In this document: one piece after another, positions 1-54,256 of the stretch
How the letters are laid out: every line of letters starts with the position of its first letter
How positions within the stretch are numbered: position 1 is the first letter of the stretch
Virus record (IMG/VR): IMGVR_UViG_3300030328_001943
Location: 1-54,256 of that record
Direction: 5' to 3' (one strand)
Origin: a virus
Lineage: Duplodnaviria > Caudoviricetes
Length of the DNA: 54,256 nt
The notes under the pieces: model-generated
What the model was told of the DNA's origin: nothing
The model's input: the letters and a program-made list of their open reading frames with translations, nothing else
Databases searched by the model: none
Translations under genes and position numbers: made by a program

Positions 1-102
1 TCTGGCTCCCAATACTGATATTCTTGATAAGCTAACTTTTTAAGTTCTGGAAAATCTAATCTAGTTCTTTGACAGTCAAGTAAAATAATTGAATCAGGGG
101 CA
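1..102. repeat. Assembly terminal redundancy, copy 1 (circular genome)
   Basis: 1-102 matches 54155-54256 except g99 vs c54253. Confidence 0.97.
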
Positions 103-1118
103 TCCTCACTAGGTCTAAAAACACCCCAAGTTGATATGGCTGAATAGTCTGCTGTTTCTTTTTTTGAAAAAGCCGTATCGTAACTTTGAATAATGTATTG
201 AACTGCGGGCAAATTTTCGGACTCCCACTCTTGCCACCACTCACGTTTAATTATAGATCCTTCTTCAGCAGTTGGAGTTTGCAACCATTGTGCGTTCCAT
301 TTTATTAACGGCAAAGACGCTCTTACTCTTTCTAGCTCATCAAAAGACCAAAACTCAGGCCATAAAGGATTATCTGTTTCTGGAAAAACAGCAGGAAACT
401 CTATAACTTCCCATTGATCAGCTTTTAGTTCTTGTTGTGCGGTCAATAATTTAGCTGTTAAATCTGTATTACTCCAACGGGTCATAACTAAAACTATGGC
501 TCCTCCAGGTTGTAGCCTTTGTCTTGGTCCAGATGTGTACCATTCATAACAGGCTTCCATAGCAGTTTTAGATAATGAATCTTGTTCTGAGTGTGGATCA
601 TCTATAATTAATAGATCTGCGCCTCGACCTGTAATAGCTCCTCCTACACCTGCTGCAAAATATTCGCCACCTTTATTGGTTTCCCAACGTCCTGCTGATT
701 TAGAGTCTGCTTGTAATTCTACGTTTGGAAACAGTTTGCTAAATTCTTCTGTGTCCATCATGTTTCTTACTTTTCTACCAAACCTAACGGCTAACTCACC
801 TGTGTGTGTTGTCTGCATAATTTTACGATTTGGTTGTTTGCCCATAATCCAAGCTGGAAAGTAAGTAGATGCAAACTCTGATTTAGTATGACGAGGAGGC
901 ATATTAACAATTAATCGGTTAATTTTACCTTCTGCTATTTGTTGTAATTTATCCGCAAAAATTTCATGATGCCGACCACAAATAAATTCAGGCCACATTT
1001 GTTTTACAAACTCTAAAAAATTTTGTTGACAGTTATCTTGGTTTTTAAGATTATCTAGACGTTCTTTTAACAACAGAGCTTCTTTCATCTCTGTATCGGA
1101 TAAATGTGCTAGGCTCAT
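1..1118 (-). CDS. terL: Terminase large subunit, N-terminal part (continues at 54154-53809; about 487 aa in total)
   Basis: Not in the ORF track. Manual translation from ATG 1118 gives MSLAHLSDTEMKE...RLIVNMPPRHTKSEFAS (Walker A-like), GAITGRGADLLIIDDPHSEQD (Walker B), IQSYDTAFSKKETADYSA (nuclease). In frame with the 53809-54153 ORF across the junction. Confidence 0.95.
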   Translation of the reverse strand, partial: MSLAHLSDTEMKEALLLKERLDNLKNQDNCQQNFLEFVKQMWPEFICGRHHEIFADKLQQIAEGKINRLIVNMPPRHTKSEFASTYFPAWIMGKQPNRKIMQTTHTGELAVRFGRKVRNMMDTEEFSKLFPNVELQADSKSAGRWETNKGGEYFAAGVGGAITGRGADLLIIDDPHSEQDSLSKTAMEACYEWYTSGPRQRLQPGGAIVLVMTRWSNTDLTAKLLTAQQELKADQWEVIEFPAVFPETDNPLWPEFWSFDELERVRASLPLIKWNAQWLQTPTAEEGSIIKREWWQEWESENLPAVQYIIQSYDTAFSKKETADYSAISTWGVFRPSEDAPDSIILLDCQRTRLDFPELKKLAYQEYQYWEP

Positions 1119-4066: not shown

Positions 4067-5259
4067 TAGCTTAATCCTTTAGATCTTCCTAGTATGTCGC
4101 TAATTGATGCAAGATCTATATTACTCATGGTTCTACCACCAGATATACTGTCAATAAGTTCTTGAATTTTTAATTTACTAGACAAAGAATCTAAAATGTC
4201 TTGCTGGTCTTTATCTACTAAACTACTATCTAATTTAGCAGTTATAGTCTCAACCGTTTTTACAAAATTAGGTTTATCTTTATCAATTTTTTTGGCAGTT
4301 ACAATTGTTTCTCCACCTGCATTAAATTTCGGTAAGGCTTCTCTTCGTTCATCAACAGCTTCTTGTAAAGATTTTTGCATAGCTTTATTTTGTTTTGAAC
4401 TGAAGCTTTTGCGTACTTCATCTCCAAATCTGCCTTTTTTTAACCTATCGCGTAACGATTCTTGAAAGCCTCTTAACATAAAATTAGGTATTCCGCCTAT
4501 CCCTTCTGCACCCATATCTTCACCAGGATTTATTTGTCTTAGTAAATCAGGCCTATTTCTAAAGTTTTCAACGGTTGCCCTAAAACTATCTTCATCTCGA
4601 TCTAAGTCGCCAGGCATATTACTTAGTCTTATTTTGGCTGCCATCAAATTATTCATTTGCTCGCCTATCATATTGACCATATTTTGATCGTTATTCATTT
4701 GAGCCTCATTTAAGTCTAATTCCAATCTATCTAACTCAACATCAATACCAAATATTTGTTGTTCTGGACTTGCATTTAAGAAATCAACGATACTGCCACT
4801 CATATCTTGTGGTGGATTTAAAACAGATCCTAATCCTGATGCTAATGCTCTATCTTGTCTAGATAAAGGAGTATCTTTATCAGCCATTAATCCATCTTGA
4901 AACATAGGTACTCGCATGCCAAATTCTGGTGAAAATTTTTCTGGCCTAGGAATCATTCTGTTTTCCATACCCATAATTGGTTGGGGGGGAGTCATAGGCA
5001 TACTTGGCAGCATATTATTTGGCTGGGCTAGGGTACCTGATATACCTCTAAGATTACGCATGATATTTTGTTTAACACTATCGGGCAATCCTCCCATAGG
5101 AGATATTTTAGGCATTTGACTAAAATCCATATCGCCAATAGGTTGACCAAAGATTGTTGGGTTGAAAGAAGGCATTCTACCTCTAAAACGCATATCTCCA
5201 ATATTAGGCTTCATAGGAGAAACTGCCATTTTGTTTCTTAGTCTACTAAAAAAACCCAT
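4066..5259 (-). CDS. Putative virion-internal protein (397 aa, Met/Pro-rich N-terminus)
   Basis: ORF coupled to both neighbours; amphipathic start MGFFSRLRNK; FNAGG motif. Confidence 0.55.
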   Translation of the reverse strand: MGFFSRLRNKMAVSPMKPNIGDMRFRGRMPSFNPTIFGQPIGDMDFSQMPKISPMGGLPDSVKQNIMRNLRGISGTLAQPNNMLPSMPMTPPQPIMGMENRMIPRPEKFSPEFGMRVPMFQDGLMADKDTPLSRQDRALASGLGSVLNPPQDMSGSIVDFLNASPEQQIFGIDVELDRLELDLNEAQMNNDQNMVNMIGEQMNNLMAAKIRLSNMPGDLDRDEDSFRATVENFRNRPDLLRQINPGEDMGAEGIGGIPNFMLRGFQESLRDRLKKGRFGDEVRKSFSSKQNKAMQKSLQEAVDERREALPKFNAGGETIVTAKKIDKDKPNFVKTVETITAKLDSSLVDKDQQDILDSLSSKLKIQELIDSISGGRTMSNIDLASISDILGRSKGLS

Positions 5260-11233: not shown

Positions 11234-11563
11234 TCAAGACTCCGTAAGACTATATTTTAGCGTTAATTCTTCACCTGATTTAACTTTTACAGTAGTAACT
11301 AAATCGTACATATCCATCTCTAAGAATGTATTAACTTTTTTCACTAAAACACAATTTGGTTTATCCGAGTGGTTGATAAAACCGCCTAATGGCATACGGA
11401 TTAAATTAAGGTGAGTTTTTGCTCTATTAGATCTTATATGCGATATACCTAAATTAGTGTTGCCTGTTATATCTTCAACTGCAAATAGACCCAAACCCTC
11501 TATATCACTAGGCTGTATTGTTAAACAGTCTGGTAAGGGCCTATAACTAAATTTATCACTCAT
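11234..11563 (-). CDS. SET-domain protein (putative lysine methyltransferase)
   Basis: S.IEGLGLFA, GFINHSDKPNC and GEELTLKY SET signatures; likely start 11563. Confidence 0.85.
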   Translation of the reverse strand: MSDKFSYRPLPDCLTIQPSDIEGLGLFAVEDITGNTNLGISHIRSNRAKTHLNLIRMPLGGFINHSDKPNCVLVKKVNTFLEMDMYDLVTTVKVKSGEELTLKYSLTES

Positions 11564-11747
11564 ATTTACCGCTAATGCCATGAAACTCGTCCCACATATC
11601 ATTTAGGTTGTCTAAATAGAATGATGATTCATATTGCGAACTTATCTTTATTAGATTGTTCTTGAACTCATTAACAGTCTCGGCACCCTCTATAGCTATC
11701 TCACAATCACTTTCAAACTGAATTAATAGATCTTTTAGTCTTGACAT
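11556..11747 (-). CDS. Hypothetical protein
   Basis: AGGAG RBS. Confidence 0.65.
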   Translation of the reverse strand: MSRLKDLLIQFESDCEIAIEGAETVNEFKNNLIKISSQYESSFYLDNLNDMWDEFHGISGKYE

Positions 11748-13916: not shown

Positions 13917-14040
13917 TGTTTTAATATGGTTATTTGTAATCTTTTTAGTCTGGAATGTGCTGGCAATGTCTTTAGTTTATACTCGTAGATGGGTAGATAG
14001 AAATAAACAAGATATAGTTAAGTGCAAATGGACAAAGTAA
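13909..14040 (+). CDS. Small membrane protein (43 aa)
   Basis: MIDVLIWLFVIFLVWNVLAMSLVYTRRW...; GGAGA RBS. Confidence 0.5.
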   Translation: MIDVLIWLFVIFLVWNVLAMSLVYTRRWVDRNKQDIVKCKWTK

Positions 14041-14903
14041 ATCCATACTTCCTAAAAAATCCCTCTTTAATTAGCTTTTCAGGTGGTCGCACATCTGGAT
14101 ATATGCTGTATCAAATACTAAAAGCACATGACGGCAAGTTGCCAGATGATGTCTTTGTTGTGTTTGCTAATACAGGTAAAGAGATGCCTGAAACATTAGA
14201 CTTTATTCAAGAAGTTGGTGATAAGTGGGGCATAGATATTCGCTGGTTAGAATTAGATATACATGATGAAAGGCCTATATTTAGATCTAAAGAAGTAAAT
14301 TATGAAACTGCAAGCAGAAATGGAGAGCCGTTTGAAGCATTAATAGACAGGAAAATGATGCTGCCAAATACAGTTATGCGGATCTGCACAGTTGAAATGA
14401 AAATTAAAGTCCTGGCAAGGTTCATGAGATCTAACGGTTTTAAAGAATGGGATAATGTTGTTGGCCTTAGATATGACGAACCTCATAGGGTAGCAAGAAT
14501 GAAAGCAAACAATGACAAAGATTTAGAGTCTTGGTTTTCATTAGCACCATTATATGATGCCAAAGTGGTTGTTGAAGATGTTTCAGAATTTTGGAACAAA
14601 AGTAATTTTGATTTACAGCTTACAAACTTTAACGGTAAAACCCCTGCAGGCAATTGTGATCTATGTTATTTAAAAGGTGTTGGAACTCTTACAAGAGTTA
14701 TTAAAGAAAAGCCAGAGCTAGCAGATTGGTGGATAGCACAAGAAGAAAAGATAAGAAAACACAAAGAAAAAATGGGCAGTAAATACAACGCCCAATTTAA
14801 AAATAATATTTCTTTTATAGAATTAAAAGAACAAGCTACAGCGCCCAACGTAATGCCAGAACTTTTTCCTGATGATGGAACGAGTTGTTTTTGTACGGAT
14901 TAA
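14028..14903 (+). CDS. PAPS-reductase-family (PP-loop) Cys-rich protein
   Basis: SFSGGRTS, FANTGKE...T, RICT..MK, GLRYDE..R, GNCDLC and C-terminal CFC motifs. Confidence 0.85.
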   Translation: MDKVNPYFLKNPSLISFSGGRTSGYMLYQILKAHDGKLPDDVFVVFANTGKEMPETLDFIQEVGDKWGIDIRWLELDIHDERPIFRSKEVNYETASRNGEPFEALIDRKMMLPNTVMRICTVEMKIKVLARFMRSNGFKEWDNVVGLRYDEPHRVARMKANNDKDLESWFSLAPLYDAKVVVEDVSEFWNKSNFDLQLTNFNGKTPAGNCDLCYLKGVGTLTRVIKEKPELADWWIAQEEKIRKHKEKMGSKYNAQFKNNISFIELKEQATAPNVMPELFPDDGTSCFCTD

Positions 14904-24702: not shown

Positions 24703-25926
24703 TTAAGCGCCATATATGTTGGAGTATAAACCGCCATATAGACCTGCGGCACCTTGTAATCCAGCTGTAAGTGGATCTCTTGGTACTCCATATTGGCTTG
24801 AAATGGTAGCTGCAGATGAACGATATTGAGGTAGTAAGCCAGCAATACCTGATAAAGTTTGTAAAGGCCTTTGTTGTTGTCCCATTTGTTGTGCAAACTG
24901 TCTTTGGAATTGTGTTTCTTGAATACCTCTTGGTATCTGACCCAAACTTCTTAATTGATTTTGTTGGCTCTGAGCTAATTGCTGTTGGAAACCGCCAAGC
25001 TGTCCTAATTGTCCACCATACCCAGCTAACTGCGTACCTAAACCTGCAGCAGTTGATCCGCGTTGAGCACCTAAACCTAGCAAATCACCAGCAAACCCTC
25101 GTTGTGCTGATGCTTCAGTTCCACCAAGTCCAGCAATAGAACTGGCCAACTGTCTTTGTGCGTCTAGTTGCCTACCAAATTCACCCATACCTAATTGTTG
25201 GGCTCTTTCAAAGCCTCTACTTCTAATTCCTGATATTGCTTCTCCTAAACCTCTACCTAAGGCTCTTTGTCTTTCTGCTGCGCCAAGCCTTGCTCTAGAA
25301 CCAAAAGCAGATTCTCCACCTCTAGCTATATCTCCTGCTCTTTGTCTAATATCTTGTTGTGCTGAGGTTCTTAAAGCATCATCAATTGTTCTATCAATAA
25401 CTTGTTGCTCAAAAGGATTCATGAATTGTTGTGTGAACCTAGGGTCATAAGATAATCCAGATATATTTCTAAGTATGTCTCTGGATTCTCCTAAGGCTCC
25501 CTGAAGTCCTGTTAGGCCTGTGCCTAATATTTGTTCGGCTCTACCAAAATAAGGCTCCTGTAGACTCTCAGCTCGTCTAGATTGCTCTATTGCTTGGTTT
25601 ATTAAAGCTTGGTTTTGAGATAGAAATGGTGTAAATGATCCTATGCCTGCGCGAGCTTGATCTAATGCTGCTTGTTCTAAATCACTTATTTGTGCAGTTT
25701 GTTGTAAGGGTACATCTTGACTAATTAAATTGCCTGCAGCATCTCTGATTTGTTGTAAAAAACCTGGAGAGTCAGCGGTACCAAAATACAGTTGCGTTAA
25801 TCTAGGATCTCCTAATTGTTCATTAGCGGCTTGACCTTGCAATACTGGCGCAATAGGGGCAGCTCTAGTGTAATCACCACTAAAAGATTTTTTTAATCTA
25901 TCGTAAATATTAACCATAGTTTTCAA
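24703..25926 (-). CDS. Gln/Gly/Ala-rich putative DNA-transfer (ejection) protein
   Basis: FMNPF..QVID and AFGSRA motifs; Gln/Gly/Ala-rich helices. Confidence 0.65.
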   Translation of the reverse strand: MKTMVNIYDRLKKSFSGDYTRAAPIAPVLQGQAANEQLGDPRLTQLYFGTADSPGFLQQIRDAAGNLISQDVPLQQTAQISDLEQAALDQARAGIGSFTPFLSQNQALINQAIEQSRRAESLQEPYFGRAEQILGTGLTGLQGALGESRDILRNISGLSYDPRFTQQFMNPFEQQVIDRTIDDALRTSAQQDIRQRAGDIARGGESAFGSRARLGAAERQRALGRGLGEAISGIRSRGFERAQQLGMGEFGRQLDAQRQLASSIAGLGGTEASAQRGFAGDLLGLGAQRGSTAAGLGTQLAGYGGQLGQLGGFQQQLAQSQQNQLRSLGQIPRGIQETQFQRQFAQQMGQQQRPLQTLSGIAGLLPQYRSSAATISSQYGVPRDPLTAGLQGAAGLYGGLYSNIYGA

Positions 25927-27340
25927 ATGTTTTCATTAATTTCATCATGTTATCTGCACCTTTTTCTCTACTTGGTTTGCCAGATACATTCATACTTAAT
26001 TTATCTTTACCAGTCTTAACTGTAAAAGCTCCAATACCTCTAACTGCTTTAGCAGTCATAACAAATTCACCATCACTCAGCATAGCAGGTATATCATCAC
26101 TTGTACCTGTGCCAGGACCTTCAGATTCTCCACCTTGCCTCATATCTAAAACTTTTTCTGCTTGGCCGCCATCTGCAAATCTTCTGACACCAACATCAAA
26201 ACCCATATTGCCACCAAAAGTTTGTGGCTGAGCTAAATCTGGTCTTATGCTTTGTCTTACATCTTGCATACCACCTGATGCTCTTTCTGCAGCCTCTTTA
26301 TTTAATTTGCCATAGCCTATAGCTAATGCTGCTATTGCAGGATCTATTATTGGGCCACGACCATCATCTGGTGTTTGAAAGGGTGACTTTAAGACATCTT
26401 CTATACCTCTAATAAATCCTGGCGTTCTTCTGCCAAAAAAACTGCCCTCTTGCACATTAGGTCCATAAACATCTTCTAGTCCACTTCTTCCACCTAATCC
26501 AATGGCATCTCCTATACCTTTAATAAATCCTGGGGTTTTGCCGCCAAAAAAAGAACCCTGCGATTGACCCATAAGTGCAGCATATTGACTTTTAACTTGA
26601 TCTGCTGGGTACATTTGCCCATCTTTACCTAAAATAAAACCCCTGCCGTTTATTTCTCTATAAGAATTTGGTTGAAATTGATTTAAAAAATCATTAGCAC
26701 TGTCGCCTCCAGATGTTCTTATAAATCCTCCTGTTGGCATCATATTTGGCATCTGTTGGCCTGCAGGCATCCCACCTCGCATTACTTGACTCATTATGCC
26801 TTTAGGCGAAAACATACTTCCTATTCCAGAAGTAATGGCGTCTTTTCCAAATGTTAAAGCACTACCTAATCCACCACCAGACCCTGCAGTTATAGCAGTT
26901 CCTACGTTACCCATACCAGGTATGCTGCCTACAAAACTACCAATACCGCTTGCAACATTACCTAAACCAACTTTACCTAATAATGATCCACCTACAGCGC
27001 CTAATGCTTGCCCTACACCTGGTATTAATACAGCAGCAGGTAATGCTACTTTTGCCACTTTTTTAACGGCATTTTTAACTTTTTTAAATACTTTGGATAA
27101 AAATCCAAATTCTGGTAATCCTGTATTTGGATTTATAATTGCTAGGCTGTTGCCTACTTCATATTCTTGAGGATTTAAACCAACATTTTTCATGTCGGTT
27201 TCGACCATCTGCCTTGTTTCTGGTCTAATGACTGGCGGTACAACCATTTCACCTTTAGCTACATGAACTAGCTGATTATCTTCGTTCCTGCCTAAGGCTG
27301 CTATACCTGTTAATTTTTTCTTCTCTGATGCACTAAGCAT
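25910..27340 (-). CDS. Putative ejection/pilot protein with an amphipathic helix
   Basis: GRNED..VHV..GE.V, INPNTGLPEF, and the tape-measure-like GPGTGTSDDIPAMLSDGEFV motif. Confidence 0.65.
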   Translation of the reverse strand: MLSASEKKKLTGIAALGRNEDNQLVHVAKGEMVVPPVIRPETRQMVETDMKNVGLNPQEYEVGNSLAIINPNTGLPEFGFLSKVFKKVKNAVKKVAKVALPAAVLIPGVGQALGAVGGSLLGKVGLGNVASGIGSFVGSIPGMGNVGTAITAGSGGGLGSALTFGKDAITSGIGSMFSPKGIMSQVMRGGMPAGQQMPNMMPTGGFIRTSGGDSANDFLNQFQPNSYREINGRGFILGKDGQMYPADQVKSQYAALMGQSQGSFFGGKTPGFIKGIGDAIGLGGRSGLEDVYGPNVQEGSFFGRRTPGFIRGIEDVLKSPFQTPDDGRGPIIDPAIAALAIGYGKLNKEAAERASGGMQDVRQSIRPDLAQPQTFGGNMGFDVGVRRFADGGQAEKVLDMRQGGESEGPGTGTSDDIPAMLSDGEFVMTAKAVRGIGAFTVKTGKDKLSMNVSGKPSREKGADNMMKLMKTFENYG

Positions 27341-29980: not shown

Positions 29981-30361
29981 TTAATAATCCCCCCAAACTT
30001 TTGTTTTTTTACCACCCCAGTATTCAACTGCATGGCCTTCGTTAATAAGCATTTGGCAAATGTCATCATTATTTTCTGTGTAAGGAATCGCAAGTATTCT
30101 GCCATATTTACCTTTGCCCAATGATTTAATTGTTATAGATCCTGCACATAACTCAATTAACCTGTCTTTAGCCGCTAACCCAAGTTTTTTTTCTGCTAAA
30201 TCTCGGGTCCTTGACTCAGGGGTGTCTATGCCTGCCAACCTGCAGCGTTGTTTATGCAAACGAACATCAAATCCTAAGTCAAGGGTAACATCAATAGTAT
30301 CGCCATCAACCACTCTTTCAACGGTTGCTTTGTATACATATGGTTCTGGTTTACTGCTCAT
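29981..30361 (-). CDS. Thermonuclease (SNase-like)
   Basis: RVVDGDTID, RLAGIDTPE and KYGRILA motifs. Confidence 0.92.
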   Translation of the reverse strand: MSSKPEPYVYKATVERVVDGDTIDVTLDLGFDVRLHKQRCRLAGIDTPESRTRDLAEKKLGLAAKDRLIELCAGSITIKSLGKGKYGRILAIPYTENNDDICQMLINEGHAVEYWGGKKTKVWGDY

Positions 30362-42312: not shown

Positions 42313-42984
42313 CTACGATACGTTTGTTCTTAGCGAGTCGTATCGATACTCGTCTCTTCTACCTCTTGCTTCAGCTTTATTTTTTAATCTGTTTATTTCT
42401 TGTAAAAATCTGTTTTCGTACAAAGCTAATAAATCAGGCTCTCCTTTCATAAAAGTGTAAGCTTCAACTAAACAACCGTATATTAAAGCATTTCTAGCAT
42501 GTTCTGCTAACCAAGTTCCAGTTGTATCAGTTACTAAAGAATTAGGCTTATATAAATAATGTAGTTCTACTTCGTAGCTTGAATTTGGAGTAGGAGCAAC
42601 AATAAGTGTTGACTCTTTTGTACCTGTTGCTAAATCCTTGTCATAATCTCCATAATAAAGTGGTAGACCATACTTTGTACTATCGGTTGGATCTGGTGTG
42701 TACTCTTGCATAAAGCTTGTATGTTTTTTTTCTAAAAAATTATACTCGCCATTTGAATCAATTGTTGCCAAAGAAAAACTTAGTTCAAAGTCAGATGGAG
42801 CTGTCAAAAACCTAGAACCTAAAGTAAGTTGTCCTTTAACATTTTTTCTAAAATAATCAAACTGCACTAGCTCAAATATTCTTTCTTCTGCATTTTTTAT
42901 AATATCATCAAGAGTATTTACAAAAGTAGTATCATCATTTTCTACATAGTTTTGAATGATTGTTTTGAGTTCTGTCAGCGTCAT
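42313..42984 (-). CDS. Neck/tail adaptor protein
   Basis: I..AEERI, P.YY, APTP...Y.VELHY and L.YG.LVEA..FMK motifs. Confidence 0.65.
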   Translation of the reverse strand: MTLTELKTIIQNYVENDDTTFVNTLDDIIKNAEERIFELVQFDYFRKNVKGQLTLGSRFLTAPSDFELSFSLATIDSNGEYNFLEKKHTSFMQEYTPDPTDSTKYGLPLYYGDYDKDLATGTKESTLIVAPTPNSSYEVELHYLYKPNSLVTDTTGTWLAEHARNALIYGCLVEAYTFMKGEPDLLALYENRFLQEINRLKNKAEARGRRDEYRYDSLRTNVS

Positions 42985-43676
42985 GTTGTATTTATAGTAC
43001 CGCCCATACCTGAATGATTAGTACAGTAATAATAAAGCGTAGGTGCTCCACTTGCAACTTCTATCTGAGTGTAAGCCCCTGAAGATCCTGGAGTTCCTGA
43101 TGTGGTTACGCCAGTAGTGTACTCAGATCCACCGCTATGAGTTCCATTTGAAGTAGTTGAAAATCTTAATGGGTGCCCAGAATTACTGCTATCAGATTGG
43201 TCAAAACGGTAAGTACTGCCCTCAGTCAAATCTAATGTAGCTTGCCTTGAACCATTAATATAAAAATAATTAGAACCGTAATAACTTGCAACCGTAACAG
43301 TGTAAGTTGTAATTGATGGCGCTGGAGTCGGGGCAGGTGTAGGAGAAGGTGTTGGGCTTGCTGTTGAAACACCGCTAATTGTAACTTCTCCTACGGCACT
43401 ATCAACCCTAAACCCAGCTATTGACCTGCTTATAATATTATCGTTATTAGAGATAACAAAACCTTGACCAACTTCTTTATCGGTATCAGGTCTTGGCTTG
43501 TATAAACTTTGTGCGTCAGCTGGAGAGTTAGAAGTTTCTAGTTGTGGATGTTTTTTTTCAAAACAACTTGGACAAACTTTCAATCCATTCCATTCTTGTT
43601 TAAGTTGTAATAACTTGTATCTGAAACCGCATCTATCACATATAGCTAATGCTTTTTTGCCACTAGCATAAGCCAT
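42981..43676 (-). CDS. Zinc-ribbon protein fused to a cupredoxin-like domain
   Basis: CDRC...CPSC; Pro/Thr linker; GHPLRFS and LYYYCTNHSGMG. Confidence 0.7.
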   Translation of the reverse strand: MAYASGKKALAICDRCGFRYKLLQLKQEWNGLKVCPSCFEKKHPQLETSNSPADAQSLYKPRPDTDKEVGQGFVISNNDNIISRSIAGFRVDSAVGEVTISGVSTASPTPSPTPAPTPAPSITTYTVTVASYYGSNYFYINGSRQATLDLTEGSTYRFDQSDSSNSGHPLRFSTTSNGTHSGGSEYTTGVTTSGTPGSSGAYTQIEVASGAPTLYYYCTNHSGMGGTINTT

Positions 43677-44347
43677 TACAAGCCTCTAAGGTAAGGTCTA
43701 ATTTTAAATGATGCTCTATCTTCGTCTTGTGATTGTGCTCTAGCAAACTCTTCTTCATAAACTTGTTTAAGTAATGGAGTTTTTTCAGGCGCTCTTTTCA
43801 TTGATATGTAATAAGCTAAACCTGCAGAGAAACAAGGATAAAATCTGAATGGCATGTCCATATTGTCTGTTGCTGTATCTGCATCATCCATACGAACAAT
43901 TTTATTGAATACTAAAATATCAGTAGAATTTTCTGGTGTAGGCCAAACATTAATAACTGGTATGCTTTGTTTATCTAAAAAAAATTGTGTTGGCCTTGCT
44001 TTTGTAGTTTTATTAGGAATGTTTATATATTCACTTCTACTTAATCTAGTCATACTTAAATCTGTTTGATTATCACTTACGGTTTTCCTAGAAACCATAT
44101 CTAATATATCTATAACATTTGCATTTAAAGTATATGCAGATGTCCCCTCAGTAACGGTTTGAGTGGTTTGTTCAATAGTCCATTGATTTAAACCACGATT
44201 GGCCCACTCTGCTAGCATAATATTTATAGATCTACGAGCAGTTCTCAAATCATACCCTGTCCTAAGTTCAATACCGCATCTTTCAAAGGCTTCTTCAATA
44301 AACTCAGTTACATTTGGTTCAAAATCTGTACTACCTGAAGTTGCCAT
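43676..44347 (-). CDS. Head-tail adaptor protein
   Basis: IEEAFERCG...TARRS.N....WANRG and IPNK....RP motifs; neck position. Confidence 0.7.
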   Translation of the reverse strand: MATSGSTDFEPNVTEFIEEAFERCGIELRTGYDLRTARRSINIMLAEWANRGLNQWTIEQTTQTVTEGTSAYTLNANVIDILDMVSRKTVSDNQTDLSMTRLSRSEYINIPNKTTKARPTQFFLDKQSIPVINVWPTPENSTDILVFNKIVRMDDADTATDNMDMPFRFYPCFSAGLAYYISMKRAPEKTPLLKQVYEEEFARAQSQDEDRASFKIRPYLRGL

Positions 44348-45027
44348 TATTCCTCCGTATCGTTGTATAAGTTATCGAATACTCGATTAACATCCAACGT
44401 ATAGTCTAAATCAGATTTTGAATAATGTATATGTGCTGATGGTCTAAAATCTGGCGCACCACTTCCTGTTTCAAACCAAGCAGGATGTGTAACTCTAACT
44501 CTATTGTTGGGTAAACCAACTATATTGCCTGTCCAATTACCAGCATCTAATAGTTCTAAAACATGTGTGCTTTTATGTTGTGCAGGATCATCAGCTATCT
44601 CACTTTCTGCATAATCCACCGTAAAGTAATATTTTGCTGGAAACATCTTGCCGTCTATTTTAGCAAGCCAGGGACAAGGAGTTGCTCTATTGATTACATA
44701 TACAGAATTATGATGTGAAGAACAGTCCCAAGGCTGAGCATCATGAACTGCCATAGGCTCTGGCCATTGATCAAAAGGTGTATCGCCAACTAAAGCTGTT
44801 ATGGGCATACGGGCCCACATAGCGCCACCATGAACCGTATCTTCTGGTTCTCCTTCTGCTTCTATTCCTGTGAATATTATATGAAAACCAAGACATCTAT
44901 TTGGCATGGTAGTAACACCCACAGCCATAGCGTGTAAAAACTCGCCATGATATTTGTCGTGGTTATGAGTGTACTCTCTTCTTACCCAGCATTTAAAATG
45001 CGGGATGTTATTGTAAAGATAAGACAA
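44347..45027 (-). CDS. Conserved hypothetical protein (His/Cys-rich, possibly an enzyme)
   Basis: GAMWARMPI.A, QPWDC.S, QHK..H and LPNNR motifs. Confidence 0.75.
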   Translation of the reverse strand: MSYLYNNIPHFKCWVRREYTHNHDKYHGEFLHAMAVGVTTMPNRCLGFHIIFTGIEAEGEPEDTVHGGAMWARMPITALVGDTPFDQWPEPMAVHDAQPWDCSSHHNSVYVINRATPCPWLAKIDGKMFPAKYYFTVDYAESEIADDPAQHKSTHVLELLDAGNWTGNIVGLPNNRVRVTHPAWFETGSGAPDFRPSAHIHYSKSDLDYTLDVNRVFDNLYNDTEE

Positions 45028-45028
45028 T

Positions 45029-45202
45029 TTAAGCTTTTACTAACTTATACCCTTTTTTCTTAGCTTGAGATCTAATTTGTGCAAGCGTCATGCTTTTAGC
45101 TGCGCCACCTTTACGCATACCTTTCATGCCACCTTTTGCGTAACCTTTGGATTTTTTACCCTTAAGACCACCATTACTAAAACCTTTAGTTTTTTTAAAC
45201 AT
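45029..45202 (-). CDS. Small Lys/Gly-rich protein (57 aa) with three xxGG repeats
   Basis: Manual translation MFKKTKGFSNGGLKGKKSKGYAKGGMKGMRKGGAAKSMTLAQIRSQAKKKGYKLVKA; AGGAGA RBS. Confidence 0.75.
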   Translation of the reverse strand: MFKKTKGFSNGGLKGKKSKGYAKGGMKGMRKGGAAKSMTLAQIRSQAKKKGYKLVKA

Positions 45203-45210
45203 AATATCTC

Positions 45211-45645
45211 CTACGATTTTGTAGTCACTTTTCTTCTATTACCTAAAACAGCTCCACAGCCTTTTGCTATAAAGCCACCTCCTTTAAGTTTAACACGATT
45301 TTGTTTTTTCATGTTTTTTTCAATAACGGATTGCATGTGTTCTTCGTAAGAAGTTTGCACACCATCATCCATTCCAAATTTGTTACTTTTTTTTGGCATA
45401 CCGCCTCCTGATAATTTATTAGAAACATTAATTGGTTTACCTTTTCTTTTTGGATTTGGGTCTTTGCGACGTTTTCTAGCTACTAATTTAGCTCTTTCTT
45501 GTTTAGACATGCCTTCAGCTTTTTTGCGTGGTAAACACTTAGGCTTACCTTCTGCTTCTTTTTTGCTTCCGCATGATCCTAGTATTGTACCGTCAGCTCC
45601 AATCCTAACCCAATCTTCGTCTAGCCATTTTTGCAATTGACCCAT
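45211..45645 (-). CDS. Basic protein
   Basis: L.KW..EDWV.I, CG...PKCLP, LKGGG..A.GCG motifs. Confidence 0.75.
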   Translation of the reverse strand: MGQLQKWLDEDWVRIGADGTILGSCGSKKEAEGKPKCLPRKKAEGMSKQERAKLVARKRRKDPNPKRKGKPINVSNKLSGGGMPKKSNKFGMDDGVQTSYEEHMQSVIEKNMKKQNRVKLKGGGFIAKGCGAVLGNRRKVTTKS

Positions 45646-45649
45646 AACT

Positions 45650-45880
45650 TTAACCAGATGATCTCATTACAGCACCAAAACCTGCGTTAGCAATACCACC
45701 ACCAGCAAACTTTTTTCTTTTGCTTTTTTTAGCTTTTGATTTTTTTGCATAGTTTGGATCCTTACAATATTTAGATGCTGCTAAATTGGCATATGCACTG
45801 GGATAAACATCAAAAGTTCTTTTAGCCCAAGCTTTACCTTCTGGACATATCTTGCCTTTACTCTTTGTTTTCTTTGCCAT
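45650..45880 (-). CDS. Small basic protein
   Basis: C..GK..AK..F.VYPSAYAN; FAGGG motif. Confidence 0.75.
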   Translation of the reverse strand: MAKKTKSKGKICPEGKAWAKRTFDVYPSAYANLAASKYCKDPNYAKKSKAKKSKRKKFAGGGIANAGFGAVMRSSG

Positions 45881-45896
45881 TATTTTATTTTATTAA

Positions 45897-46163
45897 TTAA
45901 CAACGCCATTGTCTGCGTGACCAGTAATTTGCTTTAGTTCTATCACTACCTAAACTTTTACTGCGTGCACAGTAAGCTTTTCTTTTTTTAGGATTATTAG
46001 GATGAGCTCCTAGTTTAGGATCCCCAAATGTAACACGCTTTATTTTTCCTGAAGCAGGATCTCTAACGAAAACTTCTCTAGTTTTTTTACCAAATCCAGG
46101 AGAACCTTTAGAGATTCTCCTAGGTTTGTTCAGGGTTACTTTTTTACCCTTATACTCGGCCAT
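45897..46163 (-). CDS. Small basic protein
   Basis: V.FGDP, RKAYCARS and ANYWSR..W.C motifs. Confidence 0.75.
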   Translation of the reverse strand: MAEYKGKKVTLNKPRRISKGSPGFGKKTREVFVRDPASGKIKRVTFGDPKLGAHPNNPKKRKAYCARSKSLGSDRTKANYWSRRQWRC

Positions 46164-47246: not shown

Positions 47247-48155
47247 TTAAGCCCCTTGAGATCCAAACACGCATCTGTAGTTAGAGAAACCAAAAGAATA
47301 TCTTTCTCTAGCTTTGTAGCGCATATTTCCAGTATCAAAGTCACCTTCCAATGAAGTTGTCATTGGAGATCTTTGAAAATGCTTGAAGCCATCTGGACAG
47401 TCAGTTTTCAAGAAGAAAGCATCAGTATCTGTCAGATAGTGGTTTACCACATACCCTTGAGGAATCATGCCTTGATTTCTAATTGAGTTGATGTCGTTGT
47501 CAGATGTTCCAACTCTTCCAGGACTGCTCATAAGTCTATCAGCAACAAATTGCAATGCAGGTGGGATAATTAATTTTTGCCCTTGCAAAGCAATAGTTAA
47601 ATTTCTGTCATCAACAAATGTTGAGATAGATATAAGTGCATCTTCCAAAGAAGTTTCATTCAGATCGGTGAATGAAGAAGGCCTGTTACTTAGTGTGCCA
47701 CCACCACCAAGAGGGTGATCTGTAGCAATAAGTGGTTTGCCGTCTCCACCATTATGGTCTGTTGAAAACGCATTATTTAAAATCGAAGCTGCTTTAATTT
47801 GCTTCGTATTCGCCATAGATCTAGCCAAAGCTTTTGTATACCTTGAACCAAGTCTATCGTAAAGGTTATCCTCGACTGCTTCTTCAGTTAGAGAGAAAGC
47901 AAGCGATATGGTTTCGTGTGTGTAACGAGATGTATAACCCTCAGTTGAGTTATCAAATGATACACCTGCACCTTCAGCTTTTGTTGGTGCACTGCCGAAA
48001 CCAACGATCATTACTTCTTCTTCAAACGCTCTGTCTGAAGTTTCAGTATCGAAGATCTCTTCGTGTTCAGAATCGTAACGGTTGTATTCCATGCCAAAGA
48101 GGGCATTTAATCCTGGTTCCAATTCTTTCGCTAATTGAGCTCTATTAATTGCCAT
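47247..48155 (-). CDS. Major capsid protein (Mu gpT-like family)
   Basis: MAINRAQLAKELEPGLNALFGMEY...GDFDTGNMRYKARERYSFG; follows the scaffold and precedes a strong terminator. Confidence 0.88.
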   Translation of the reverse strand: MAINRAQLAKELEPGLNALFGMEYNRYDSEHEEIFDTETSDRAFEEEVMIVGFGSAPTKAEGAGVSFDNSTEGYTSRYTHETISLAFSLTEEAVEDNLYDRLGSRYTKALARSMANTKQIKAASILNNAFSTDHNGGDGKPLIATDHPLGGGGTLSNRPSSFTDLNETSLEDALISISTFVDDRNLTIALQGQKLIIPPALQFVADRLMSSPGRVGTSDNDINSIRNQGMIPQGYVVNHYLTDTDAFFLKTDCPDGFKHFQRSPMTTSLEGDFDTGNMRYKARERYSFGFSNYRCVFGSQGA

Positions 48156-50258: not shown

Positions 50259-50720
50259 TTACAGCGTGACAATATCATCTGGATCTGCGATCGTAGCGAT
50301 AACCTCATCATCGTTAATAATACGGCACTCAGCATTATCGCCTAGTTTAAAGCGTGCTCCTGCGTACCTCCCAATCAAAACCCATTGTTTTTCTTGACAC
50401 CAAGGTTTTGAACCAAATTTAGTTGTATCTGTATAACAAAGTGGACCCATTTTTACTACATAAGCTACTACCGAGGCCAAGGCTTCTCTATCTACCGTAT
50501 CTTTAACTAACTCTATACCGCCTTTACTTACACCTCTGCCTCTGTAAGGCAATATTAATATTCTCCAACCAGCAGGTTCTGGCATACGGTCTAATAGTGA
50601 TTGTTTTAATAAAGTTGGATCTAAAACTCTATCTTCCGCTGTAACGAAAGCTTTTTGAACTTCTGATTTTTTTTTGTTGTTTTCTGCGGCAATATGGTCA
50701 GGAACTATTACTTTCTTCAT
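50259..50720 (-). CDS. groES: GroES-like co-chaperonin
   Basis: P.GWRILI, SKGGI.L mobile loop, V..GP, RYAG and RIINDDEVIA motifs. Confidence 0.85.
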   Translation of the reverse strand: MKKVIVPDHIAAENNKKKSEVQKAFVTAEDRVLDPTLLKQSLLDRMPEPAGWRILILPYRGRGVSKGGIELVKDTVDREALASVVAYVVKMGPLCYTDTTKFGSKPWCQEKQWVLIGRYAGARFKLGDNAECRIINDDEVIATIADPDDIVTL

Positions 50721-51149: not shown

Positions 51150-53615
51150 TTAACTATTTTTCTTAAACATATTTAACATTTGCATTTCTTTTTGTTGAGC
51201 TAATCTTGCTCTTGCCGTTGCATCTTTTATGTCTGCGATCTCTTCTTGGGTATCTATTCGTTCTCTGTCTACCTGATCTCTACGCAAAGATTCTTCAACT
51301 CGACGTTGTTGATCTACTTGGAATTGTTGTTGTTCTTGAGCCAACTCTTGACCTTTCAAAGCAAGTTCTTGTTTTCTTATTGCGACAAGTGGATCTTCGT
51401 CTTGTGGTGCAGATATTTGATTTGTGTATTCGATCATTAACTCACTTAATATCGGAGCAGAAAATTGTGCTAACAAATCATTTGCTTGTGTTAATAAAGG
51501 TATAGCCTCAGCGTCTGGCAATTGTTCAGATTGTTGAATTAGTTGTTGATACTGATTTAATACCTCAGGAGGCATTTGTTGTTGTGCTAAACCATCAGCT
51601 TTCATTTGTAAATGTTGCATGATGTGCGAATGTATTAAAGCCTGTACTTGTGCGTTCATTTGCACAGGCGGGGTATTTAATAAACTCATATGCACAGAAA
51701 TATGAGCATCGTGATTTTGTTGAGGAAAAGCTTGAGCTGGCGTACCCATAAGCAAACCATTATTTTCAATTCCAGCTTCAGTTGGGCGTGGTTGTGCATC
51801 AGGAGGTGGCATTAATAATTGATCTATATTATCCACACCTATAGCAGCATACATTCGACGATAGGATTCATGAATACCTTGTGGGCCATGAACTGAGGGA
51901 TTTGATTGTACCAACTGCATTAGTTCTTGTGCCATAGCAATCCTTTGTGAGGTGCTAAATATATCAGGATTGCTAACAGGTATAATATCAACCCTATCGT
52001 CAAAATCTGAAACTTTCACATTTAAATTACCGTTAGCTGTCATGTACGGATATTCTGGCGGTAATGAGTCTTTGAATATTTCTGCTAACAGTTTAAATTC
52101 TTTCTTTTGTGCGTTGTGTAATCTTTTGTGTATAGCTGACAAAACTTTTGTAGATCTTTCTAGTAATGCAAGTGTTGTGCCTACTGGAGCATTAGGATTG
52201 CCTTGACCTGTATTTATTTCTGCTATAGACGCAAACTTTTGACCAGAATCAACCAATATACCTAGAAGGTTAAGCAAAGTACCGCTTGGTTCTTTGAAAG
52301 GCAACGGTTGTATAGATTCTCTCAAAGATCCGCCAGGGGCATCTACATCTCTAAACTCTCCAGGCTGTATAGGGGTGTCCTCATCCCTAATTCTAATACC
52401 TCTTGTCTTGAACCCAGCAGGTAGGTTAGCAAGGGTACCTGCATCGATTAATTGCCTTAATATTGACGTAGATGCCTTTGACAATCCTCCGATCATATGT
52501 GTTAGACCGAAACCATAAAATCCTAAACCAGGTAAAAATTTAAAATGAACAAAATATTCAATTTTATTTTTTAATGGATCTTCTTCTTTAAAATTTCTGC
52601 GTATAGATAAAACTTTATCGTTGTAAGAATCTATCGTAACTATGTAAGGTAATTTAACGCCTGTAAATTCTCCATTTTCATTTACATCCTCAAAACCTGG
52701 CAAGTCTAAATTACAGTGAACTTCGTATAAATTTGCTACTTCATCACCGTCGTATTGTGACTGAATACCAGATAGCTCATCTATTTCTTCTTTAACTTGA
52801 GATCCTGCATCTAAATCACCCTGACCTGTATCAAACATTCTGTAGAATCCAATAGCTTGAAGTTTTCTTACTTCATTTTCTGGCATTTTTATAATGTTAG
52901 TAATTCTAGGACATGATTCTAAATCTGTAGTGTAGTAAGGAACTACTAAATCTTCGGGTGCTACAAATTTTGATATGGCTCTACCAAGAGTTTCATCATA
53001 ATAAACTTTTTTAAATGCAGATCCTGCTAAAGGTAAATAAAATAAAAGTTGATCTAATTCTTCGTCAAACTCTTGCATGACATGAACTATTTGATAATTC
53101 ATAAACTCTTGAACTCTTTGAGCTTGTTCTTCAATCACAGAGTTATAATCACCAATTACTTGACTTTTGACTGGTCCTCCACTAGGGAATAATTCTTTGT
53201 AGGCCTGAGCTTGGAAAGTGGTGACAGCTTCTCCTAGTAATGGATGTATTACACCTGAAGCGCCCTCAAATGGTTCGCTTCTTTCATCATCAAACTTCAT
53301 GCCCAAATATTTAAGGCCGTCAGTATATGTATTTTCCCAATCTTCTCGTGCTGCTTTGTCTTTTTCTATTGAGCCTACTAGGTTTGATGCTATCTCTTGC
53401 AAGTCTCTTTCATCTAATAATTCAGCTAAATTATCTTCAAAGTTATTTTCAATAGGCATATCAACTTGACCTAAAATAGCTCCACCATCTTCAGTCATAG
53501 TGACATTTGGATCTTCTTCTTCTAGAACTTCTACAACAGTATTAAGTTCATCTTGTTCTTGGGAAACAGATTTAGTTACGTCTACTGGTATGTCTCTTTG
53601 ATTTTCAATAGCCAT
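51150..53615 (-). CDS. Portal protein
   Basis: 821 aa, downstream of terL; PFEGASGV.HPLL, GSAFKKVYYD, LIDAGTLANLP; Gln-rich coiled-coil tail. Confidence 0.9.
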   Translation of the reverse strand: MAIENQRDIPVDVTKSVSQEQDELNTVVEVLEEEDPNVTMTEDGGAILGQVDMPIENNFEDNLAELLDERDLQEIASNLVGSIEKDKAAREDWENTYTDGLKYLGMKFDDERSEPFEGASGVIHPLLGEAVTTFQAQAYKELFPSGGPVKSQVIGDYNSVIEEQAQRVQEFMNYQIVHVMQEFDEELDQLLFYLPLAGSAFKKVYYDETLGRAISKFVAPEDLVVPYYTTDLESCPRITNIIKMPENEVRKLQAIGFYRMFDTGQGDLDAGSQVKEEIDELSGIQSQYDGDEVANLYEVHCNLDLPGFEDVNENGEFTGVKLPYIVTIDSYNDKVLSIRRNFKEEDPLKNKIEYFVHFKFLPGLGFYGFGLTHMIGGLSKASTSILRQLIDAGTLANLPAGFKTRGIRIRDEDTPIQPGEFRDVDAPGGSLRESIQPLPFKEPSGTLLNLLGILVDSGQKFASIAEINTGQGNPNAPVGTTLALLERSTKVLSAIHKRLHNAQKKEFKLLAEIFKDSLPPEYPYMTANGNLNVKVSDFDDRVDIIPVSNPDIFSTSQRIAMAQELMQLVQSNPSVHGPQGIHESYRRMYAAIGVDNIDQLLMPPPDAQPRPTEAGIENNGLLMGTPAQAFPQQNHDAHISVHMSLLNTPPVQMNAQVQALIHSHIMQHLQMKADGLAQQQMPPEVLNQYQQLIQQSEQLPDAEAIPLLTQANDLLAQFSAPILSELMIEYTNQISAPQDEDPLVAIRKQELALKGQELAQEQQQFQVDQQRRVEESLRRDQVDRERIDTQEEIADIKDATARARLAQQKEMQMLNMFKKNS

Positions 53616-53812
53616 TAGTGTAATACCCTCGGCTCTATTTCATCACCGTGTTCTATACTGTGATAAATTTTATCTTTAATCTCACCTACTAATCTAACAT
53701 TAAAATCTTCAGCTTGATTTATAGCTTCTTCAAAAGTTTTTGCAATCACTATGGGACCATCAATAGTCTGACCATTTTTTACATACTCAGTTATAAAAAA
53801 TCTATACATCAA
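53615..53812 (-). CDS. Small hypothetical protein, paralog of 31242-31418
   Basis: FIT...GP...A....EA...AE......GE..D...VLH. Confidence 0.7.
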   Translation of the reverse strand: MMYRFFITEYVKNGQTIDGPIVIAKTFEEAINQAEDFNVRLVGEIKDKIYHSIEHGDEIEPRVLH

Positions 53813-54256
53813 TAATATTCTCGTTTGATAGGTAAGCGATCTCTATCTTCATAATCATCTGACAATGAAACTAAACCACCTTCCCTAAATCTCATCATAG
53901 CTTGAGTCATAGTATCACATAAATCATCATTTGCTCCAAACGGAAAAGATGCACACTCTTCTATCATTTCTTGAGCAAAGCTTTTGTAACTTGGAGCCCA
54001 AACTAAACCACTTTCAAATATTGGTGCAACAGAGTGCATACGAGAGTGTTTGTCATGGCCGCGAGTAGGAGAATAATTAACCACAGGTATGCCTAATCTT
54101 CTAAGCTCATGCGTTAATGGTGTTCCACTTGCTTTACTTTCAATTAACACCATATCTGGCTCCCAATACTGATATTCTTGATAAGCTAACTTTTTAAGTT
54201 CTGGAAAATCTAATCTAGTTCTTTGACAGTCAAGTAAAATAATTGAATCAGGCGCA
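53809..54256 (-). CDS. terL: Terminase large subunit, C-terminal part
   Basis: IESKASG, DK..R and FP.G.NDDLCD nuclease motifs; in frame with 1-1118. Confidence 0.95.
   Translation of the reverse strand, partial: APDSIILLDCQRTRLDFPELKKLAYQEYQYWEPDMVLIESKASGTPLTHELRRLGIPVVNYSPTRGHDKHSRMHSVAPIFESGLVWAPSYKSFAQEMIEECASFPFGANDDLCDTMTQAMMRFREGGLVSLSDDYEDRDRLPIKREYY
54155..54256. repeat. Assembly terminal redundancy, copy 2
   Basis: Matches 1-102 with one mismatch. Confidence 0.97.

Follow-up and report, generated by a model that had tools for sequence, protein, structure and literature searches.

The window analysed here, that is the whole 54,256-base IMG/VR record IMGVR_UViG_3300030328_001943, carries six late-strand proteins that share a short peptide built around two adjacent glycines. 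Three of them are small, basic and encoded side by side (57, 144 and 76 amino acids, aa), and the other three are large (476, 397 and 983 aa; Table 1). All 11 strings that the original prediction had listed under the pattern [FYML]-x-x-G-G are indeed present in these open reading frames (ORFs), and the 476- and 983-aa proteins each hold one more instance, MPTGG and LEEGG respectively, which raises the number to 13. As had also been proposed, the motif usually follows basic residues (a lysine or arginine at most three residues upstream in 9 of the 11 listed instances) and lies at segment boundaries or near C-termini; the joints bound cassettes in relatives, and the mean relative position of the 13 instances is 0.67 of protein length. 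The window by itself fails to prove the motif, which becomes solid only through relatives, and then with a somewhat different motif. The recurring element is a bulky residue (F/Y/M/L/K/R), a small one (often A/S/K), any residue, two glycines, any residue and V/I/M. Alignment with relatives suggests that this junction peptide, whose flanks are conserved, is under selection as a peptide. Relatives add, drop or duplicate modules at its joints in the 476-, 983- and 397-aa proteins and in the three small basic proteins. We tentatively read it as a proteolytic processing site.

Table 1. Positions in the window of the proteins that carry the junction peptide, of their parts and of reference genes
Feature	Position	Strand	Description
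57-aa ORF	45029-45202	-	FSNGG, YAKGG, MRKGG; Lys/Gly-rich, 18 K+R, 0 D+E
57-aa ORF, junction units	residues 8, 21, 29 (45098-45181)	-	
144-aa protein	45211-45645	-	LSGGG, LKGGG; basic
144-aa protein, N-terminal domain	within 45211-45645	-	W..CG..C.P, phrog_23735
144-aa protein, junction 1	residue 78, 45394-45414	-	
144-aa protein, junction 2	residue 120, 45268-45288	-	followed by conserved tail IAKGCGAVLGNRRKVTTKS
76-aa protein	45650-45880	-	FAGGG; basic; YPSAYAN domain (phrog_27331), KFAGGGIA (45689-45709), short C-terminal tail
476-aa protein	25910-27340	-	FADGG, MRQGG; Gly-rich, putative ejection protein
476-aa protein, C-terminal module	residues 377-476, 25913-26212	-	tape-measure-type
476-aa protein, junction FADGGQA	26159-26179	-	within C-terminal module, F388
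476-aa protein, junction MRQGGES	26123-26143	-	M400; followed by GPGTGTSDDIPAMLSDGEFVMTAKAV
397-aa protein	4066-5259	-	FNAGG
397-aa protein, junction FNAGGET	residue 312, 4306-4326	-	between variable middle and conserved ~85-residue C-terminal part
983-aa protein	1115-4066	-	FKNGG, LNTGG
983-aa protein, internal junction FKNGGPVSI	residues 741-749, 1820-1846	-	L084 and L044 end here with the tail
983-aa protein, cassette A	residues 750-967, 1166-1819	-	between junction and tail
983-aa protein, C-terminal tail LNTGGLVSIDSMLAAL	1118-1165	-	GG-[LPFI]-V ending in 8/8 family members
226-aa conserved protein	44347-45027	-	directly downstream of 57-aa ORF; beta-rich, two halves
Major capsid protein	47247-48155		Pfam/PHROGs
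Portal	51150-53615		Pfam/PHROGs
Two SU10-type adaptors	42313-42984 and 43676-44347		Pfam/PHROGs

Joints in the small basic proteins and in the large proteins

To obtain relatives, we took two annotated phages and 80 IMG/VR loci that surround the capsid gene, called their ORFs and matched these to the window proteins. Across the small-protein families, the residue three places ahead of Gly-Gly is Y, M or K about equally often (135 distinct windows from 57 proteins). The class [FYML] is therefore too narrow, and it also ignores the V, I or M that stands two residues past Gly-Gly. A position matrix built from these 135 GG-centred windows turned out too lysine-heavy to be of use on the large proteins.

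The 57-aa ORF matched 14 relatives, 13 of which are small proteins made almost wholly of K-x-K-G-[YM]-x-x-G-G-x-[MV] units with four to nine Gly-Gly pairs each, the 14th being a 429-aa multi-module protein with several such units; no DNA tandem repeat lies beneath the 57-aa ORF itself. ORFs of this type stand directly upstream of the gene for the 226-aa protein in several loci, and a 328-aa metagenomic protein seen in one contig (P0017) looks like a Lys/Gly tag array fused in frame to a protein of the 226-aa family, either real or produced by gene-calling read-through. The family of the 144-aa protein has 24 members, 21 of them with the N-terminal domain, and in 12 of these 21 the initial Gly-Gly falls 41-43 residues past the C.P element. 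Four short forms stop about at this initial joint, and at locus L013 the part that follows the joint is a separate ORF of 65 aa. A tail with the A.GCG element, [IV]A[KR]GCGx[VI]M..RK, occurs in 17 of the 24 members, directly after Gly-Gly in 11 of the 17. In the ESM Atlas, the 144-aa protein fell among viral hypothetical clusters only, with DUF5872 and DUF6321 on some neighbouring clusters. As for the 76-aa protein (family of 21), the Gly-Gly site lies past the YPSAYAN domain in 17 members, and a Y[FY][KR][KR]GG site lies ahead of the domain in the remaining 4.

Gain and loss of modules is seen in the family of the 983-aa protein, in which eight proteins display four architectures that differ by whole cassettes bounded by the repeated joint. 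All eight end in GG-[LPFI]-V-(S-I-D-x-M-L-A-x-L), and two shorter members, L084 (763 aa) and L044 (694 aa), stop where the window protein has its internal joint INAFKNGGPVSIQESLNELN. Cassette A is absent from these two and from L042, which has a diverged stretch without Gly-Gly at the first joint, and it is present in the window, P0393, L085/P0398 and P0394. Furthermore, L085/P0398 carries cassettes A and B and P0394 carries A and C, every extra cassette arriving with another joint. In L085 the joints j1 and j2 are 73% identical over 66 nt, and the string IQESLNELN is duplicated. A search of the cassettes for known enzymes found no Pfam family in the window cassette or in P0398, P0394, P0318 and P0355. 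The single hint of an enzyme is a zinc-peptidase-like HELLH string, matched by no Pfam family, in cassette B of a relative (L085:368-4264 (+); P0398, residues ~1005-1282). A search with the tail of the 983-aa protein (residues 925-983) returned 7 close relatives only and is therefore silent on whether the tail is a portable tag. In the 397-aa protein, the one relative compared (327 aa, from L084) keeps MSNGGPI at the same boundary.

The last 100 residues of the 476-aa protein have 6934 relatives at E <=0.001, in proteins of 261-833 aa whose N-terminal parts vary, some with LysM. Of the 120 relatives listed we read 20, a non-random choice meant to cover a wide range of lengths. Every one of the 20 retains two joints, one about 17 residues ahead of GPGTGTSDDIPAML and another, MRxGG[EP]S, immediately ahead of it. 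In three of the 20, one or two cassettes are added, with a further GY[SYA]xGG[EP]V at the boundary of each. At the other end of the 476-aa protein, residues ~20-35 hold a conserved ..LVHVAKGEMVVPP.. that resembles its own C-terminal G-E-F-V element as well as VHRGEFVF of lambda, and that may reflect an internal duplication.

Gene context and the 226-aa protein

The window is a complete phage genome. Its large terminase gene (TerL) is split over the ends, 3-1118 (-) running off the start and resuming in frame at 53809-54255 (-). The initial 30 bases recur at 54155, and the two ends (1-102 and 54155-54256) overlap imperfectly over ~102 bases. Overlapping ends and the split terminase gene together indicate a complete genome of ~54.15 kb that is either circularly closed or terminally redundant. 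Besides the genes in Table 1, Pfam and PHROGs find tail fibre and virion proteins, a lysozyme and a spanin, and, on the other side of the genome, a replication block with primase-helicase, exonuclease and Sak4. A search with the major capsid protein matched 22 phage records, the best being DSL-LC04 (70% identity), followed by the Pelagibacter phages HTVC023P and HTVC027P and the Roseobacter phages CRP-901/902, and IMG/VR holds at least 600 matching stretches. On these capsid-protein matches, the window is an HTVC023P-type marine podophage. Between portal and major capsid protein, the ORFs match unknown families or families other than the prohead protease that would go with a T4-type capsid-targeting sequence: a GroES-like 153-aa ORF (50259-50720, -; phrog_3188, E 5e-11; Pfam Cpn10 below cutoff), placed between the genes for the portal and the putative scaffold here as in HTVC023P and DSL-LC04, and a 322-aa protein, the putative scaffold, with weak coiled-coil likeness (Fib_alpha, E 0.0015, below cutoff).

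Several other genes may be mentioned. An 88-aa basic protein (45897-46163, -) adjoins the ORFs that bear the peptide and carries none itself; its family extends to the myophage HTVC008M, other podophages and spindle-shaped viruses of Nitrosopumilaceae (archaeal), and database fusions of this family with the 226-aa family carry PF19846 (DUF6321). A 122-aa ORF (11234-11602, -) has a SET domain (PF00856, E 1.2e-7, 32.5 bits for a cutoff of 22.4) and is a possible lysine methyltransferase, which is of note in a genome with genes for very Lys-rich small proteins; the string GGFINHS in this ORF is the SET NHS motif and not a junction peptide. A staphylococcal-nuclease-like ORF stands among the lysis genes (29981-30361, -; PF00565, E 3e-11), and a PAPS-reductase-like ORF in the early region (14022-14903, +; PF01507; phrog_424). 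The C-terminus of TerL resembles the peptide, MRFREGGLVSLSDDY (FREGGLVSL end; 53809-54153, -, residues 86-97 of the piece), and a shared portal-binding peptide was considered. As the terminase Gly-Gly is GN or GS in relatives, we take this likeness to be a coincidence and the site to be part of the terminase fold. The pattern matches in portal and primase look equally unrelated to the junction peptide.

The 226-aa protein, whose gene lies directly upstream of the first adaptor gene in the loci examined, had been proposed as a conserved His/Cys protein and a speculative reader or protease. Its family is strongly conserved (1205 database proteins, 512 representatives), and an alignment of 33 diverse sequences has F48, G68, P75, Y133, G167, P173, N174, R176 and P192 invariant. 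The cysteine and most histidines (C102, H23, H32 and H201) are absent from the invariant and near-invariant columns of these 33 sequences, and only H155 is nearly invariant. A structural model predicted from the 33 sequences reached a pLDDT of 85.9, where 18 close relatives had given 33.8, and had no clear fold match in Foldseek against PDB (best E 0.013) or in VIA (best Z 4.3 over 48,161 chains); in BFVD, it matched uncharacterised viral proteins only, and the ESM Atlas gave no named family. Neither the alignment nor the predicted model would thus give a basis for calling the 226-aa protein a protease. A methyl-lysine writer and reader pair, made of the SET gene, the Lys-rich proteins and a faint Tudor/chromo likeness of the 226-aa protein, was also considered and found too weak (Z <=4.3).

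Possible roles: processing site, docking tag or hinge

We consider that the junction peptide is most likely a proteolytic processing site at the module joints of late proteins, a reading drawn by analogy to which we give a probability of about 40%. It is favoured because the single experimental anchor, the pb2 protein of phage T5, is cut right after the first residue of the peptide. The tandem arrays, fixed positions and cassette variation in relatives, together with the likeness to tape measure proteins and to the processed joint of TP901-1 Tal, are counted in its favour as well. By this analogy with T5, the cut would fall just past the bulky residue, before x-x-G-G; in the 476-aa protein this would be F388|A389, with a C-terminal fragment of 88 residues set free. 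Multi-module precursors and Lys/Gly arrays would be split into pieces during or after particle assembly, such that the 983-type proteins would come apart into their cassettes and the arrays would give short basic peptides. As no protease is recognisable in the genome, cutting would be due to a host enzyme or to an unrecognised activity. The maturation cleavage site that had been suggested in the original prediction is retained by analogy only, from the tape-measure match of the 476-aa protein and the T5 pb2 cut before AEGG.

A number of observations weigh against a processing site. The sole mapped cut is that of T5, which has an arginine at the bulky position, and in lambda both the cut site and the enzyme are described as unknown in the 2025 Ur-lambda paper (PMC12617516). 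The 65-aa ORF of locus L013 begins after Gly-Gly and not before x-x-G-G, off the T5 register, and the joint DNA is partly duplicated in L085, which recombination fits equally well. No protease family, adenain-type or other, was found among 79 ORFs with Pfam or 45 ORFs with PHROGs, in agreement with the earlier remark that no canonical prohead protease was to be seen. From late-strand gene order, tight spacing and similarity to tape measure proteins, we infer that the six proteins belong to the particle, and the occurrence of the 88-aa family in a myophage and in archaeal spindle-shaped viruses calls for caution towards a capsid-specific role for the whole block. When all window ORFs were searched with a hidden Markov model of the 476-type C-terminal module, nothing but the 476-aa protein came up (next the 57-aa ORF, E 0.16), which means that the shared element is the short peptide only. 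Searches of Pfam and NCBIfam with the motif-bearing pieces at E up to 10 gave nothing relevant, and no model covers the peptide. The alignment of window and lambda gpH by BLASTP is weak as well (E 0.077 over 21 residues).

Counts of the motif, compared with per-protein shuffles, count on the same side. Over all 78 ORFs, [FYML]xxGG was observed 26 times against 17.7 +/- 4.0 expected (reached by 14 of 500 shuffles) or 18.0 +/- 4.0 (81 of 2000), and the whole of this excess comes from the six named proteins (13 against 4.6 +/- 2.1; 0 of 500 shuffles). Because these six had been picked for having the motif, their excess was compared with the summed excess of the six best proteins of each shuffle, and this selection-corrected test was not significant (9.23 against 6.98 +/- 1.70; 104 of 1000 shuffles). 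The 57-aa ORF alone is unusual by its motif count (3 against 0.39 expected; 2 of 1000 shuffles). In the first 50 kb of two related phages, the loose motif was not enriched either (DSL-LC04, 20 against 17.5; HTVC023P, 19 against 19.4). The narrower [FYM]AxGG was enriched in DSL-LC04 (7 against 1.06; 0 of 500 shuffles; sites in proteins of 825, 759, 645 and 114 aa), which counts in favour of our reading, and not in HTVC023P (3 against 1.11; 52 of 500). Thus, the shared motif that had been proposed holds, in a somewhat different form, through the arrays, fixed positions and cassettes of relatives, and not as an enrichment of [FYML]xxGG over a Gly-rich background.

A first alternative, improbable in our view although it deserves serious attention, is a docking or assembly tag: the peptide, with its frequent hydrophobic tail, would bind a component of the particle, for instance portal, scaffold, tail channel, the inner face of the capsid or the 226-aa protein, and thereby load or anchor cargo, internal tags being the trace of fused tagged genes. 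The tails past the last Gly-Gly are conserved and always C-terminal (8/8 in the 983-aa family; A.GCG tail of the 144-aa family), tandem arrays would give avidity, and the C-termini of tape measure proteins are reported to anchor in the tail tip in T5 and JBD30. The position of 57-type ORFs next to the 226-aa gene and the apparent fusion in P0017 would fit as well. However, a terminal tag suits poorly the internal joints far from termini and those N-terminal of a domain (4/21 in the 76-aa family).

A passive hinge combined with a recombination joint is likewise unlikely, though far from negligible. Here the Gly-Gly turn with its hydrophobic flanks would be a structural linker that leaves modules free to fold or thread independently, and its conserved coding sequence would serve as crossover point for the exchange of cassettes, being neither recognised nor cut. 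Such a view agrees well with the gain and loss of cassettes exactly at joints, with the joint-to-joint nucleotide similarity inside the L085 gene and with the shuffling of modules in the small proteins. On the other hand, a passive linker needs neither a conserved bulky residue at position -3 nor V/I/M past Gly-Gly, and it leaves unexplained why four to nine tandem GG units occur in a protein without modules to link and why the reported T5 cut falls at the peptide.

A bolder version of the processing reading, which we regard as quite improbable, would make the Gly-Gly peptide a general cutting code of tailed phages. A host or unrecognised enzyme would cut before x-x-G-G at every joint, cassettes would be released as cargo, and Lys/Gly arrays would yield polycationic peptides of ~11 residues that neutralise head DNA in the manner of adenovirus mu, lambda gpH and T5 pb2 being cases of the same code. 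Chance matches of a four-letter wildcard pattern in Gly-rich and Lys-rich proteins, which the corrected test, the 40 other late ORFs (10 against 11.0 expected; 330 of 500 shuffles) the unrelated matches in the SET ORF and TerL and the similar-looking ones in portal and primase would favour, are very improbable as the explanation, since positional conservation, tandem arrays and cassette boundaries in relatives cannot come from composition. Some known signals would fit less well: a GlyGly-CTERM/rhombosortase signal, because the hydrophobic stretch past Gly-Gly is too short, and a bacteriocin double-glycine leader, because the register is wrong and there is no C39 domain. 2A-like skipping and self-cleaving modules were considered in the same way, and for self-cleavage there is no nucleophile at the site.

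Should the junction peptide prove to be a processing signal, it would predict, precisely enough to be tested, where lambda gpH is cut (F733|A734), and likewise for thousands of proteins from uncultured phages; the 476-type module alone has 6934 relatives. It would also provide a rule for reading multi-module phage proteins as separate parts and a means of finding what is brought by marine podophages into SAR11 and other abundant hosts. A docking tag could instead be used to load foreign proteins into phage particles. In the open-access literature, which is not searchable by sequence pattern, we found no paper describing the peptide as a general junction or cutting signal.

Comparison with known processed proteins

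Tape measure proteins were already known to be cut in the 1970s. In adenovirus, small and very basic proteins with GG sites, a feature shared with the window, yield DNA-condensing peptides. The adenain consensus has a hydrophobic residue two places ahead of GG. In the window the bulky residue stands three places ahead in 8 of the 11 sites, that is at P5 and not at P4 of a cut past GG; only LSGGG, LKGGG and FAGGG can be read in the adenain register, and relatives have K-x-x-GG there. Adenovirus and African swine fever virus (ASFV) are moreover eukaryotic viruses with unrelated capsids. With the register one place off and no protease family in the genome, the proposed analogy with the proteases of these viruses fits poorly.

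Another known system is the Tal protein of phage TP901-1, in which a Gly-rich joint, NGGGNSGGGD, is reported to be proteolytically processed and Gly to Arg changes to block processing (PMC11409707). As in the window proteins the joint is Gly-rich, and in Tal it separates a structural part from a cargo (catalytic) part of a virion protein. In contrast to the junction peptide, it is made purely of Gly, Ser and Asn, without bulky residue or V/I/M, and it belongs to another family in a phage of a Gram-positive host.

There is also likeness to tape measure proteins. In the 476-aa protein, hits to six tape-measure PHROG families (E 1.1e-7 to 1.7e-4) span residues 377-461, and a hit to the tape measure protein of 8rk3_A (E 0.0019), evidently from Pseudomonas phage JBD30, spans residues 399-440. 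A conserved P-A-...-G-E-F-V-x-T element follows the peptide, and the counterpart in DSL-LC04 was annotated by its depositors as a tail tape measure protein. The Pfam and NCBIfam models TMP_2, TMP_C and Tape_meas_lam_C did not hit the 476-aa protein, even at E up to 10 on its C-terminal piece, whereas lambda gpH and T5 pb2, used as positive controls, were recovered. With SU10-type adaptors in the genome and podophages as relatives, the 476-aa protein does not qualify as the length ruler of a long tail.

Lambda gpH is processed to gpH* and gpHC, with the loss of ~14 kDa from its Gly-rich C-terminal region (PMC12617516). This Gly-rich region contains FATGG at 733-737 (F733-A-T-G-G-F), YATGG at 778-782 and MRDGG at 842-846. 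The first of these is followed by PAGIVHRGEFVFTKEATSRIG, which is similar to PAMLSDGEFVMTAKAVRGIG in the window, and a cut at F733|A734 would take off 120 residues. A difference is that Pfam PF09718 covers residues 627-701 of gpH, upstream of the motif, and has no match in the window.

T5 pb2 remains the nearest case. It is reported to be cut after R1127, giving pb2* and pb2C (Linares et al. 2023, PMC10038345), and in the DT57C relative of T5 the cleaved C-terminal fragment is reported to stay in the tail tip (PMC10713586). T5 differs by its long tail, the length of which is set by pb2, while the window phage is short-tailed. It differs also by the arginine at the bulky position and by a single site, without repeated joints or cassettes, and the cut is known for T5 only. 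Nevertheless, in the T5 record R1127 directly precedes AEGGMM (..VPR|AEGGMMYPG), so that both proteins present X-A-x-G-G-hydrophobic near the C-terminus (F388-A-D-G-G-Q-A in the 476-aa protein and R1127-A-E-G-G-M-M in T5), both have a G-E-..-V-V-T element downstream, and the C-terminal fragment of 88 residues predicted for the 476-aa protein would be close in size to the 92 residues reported for pb2C.

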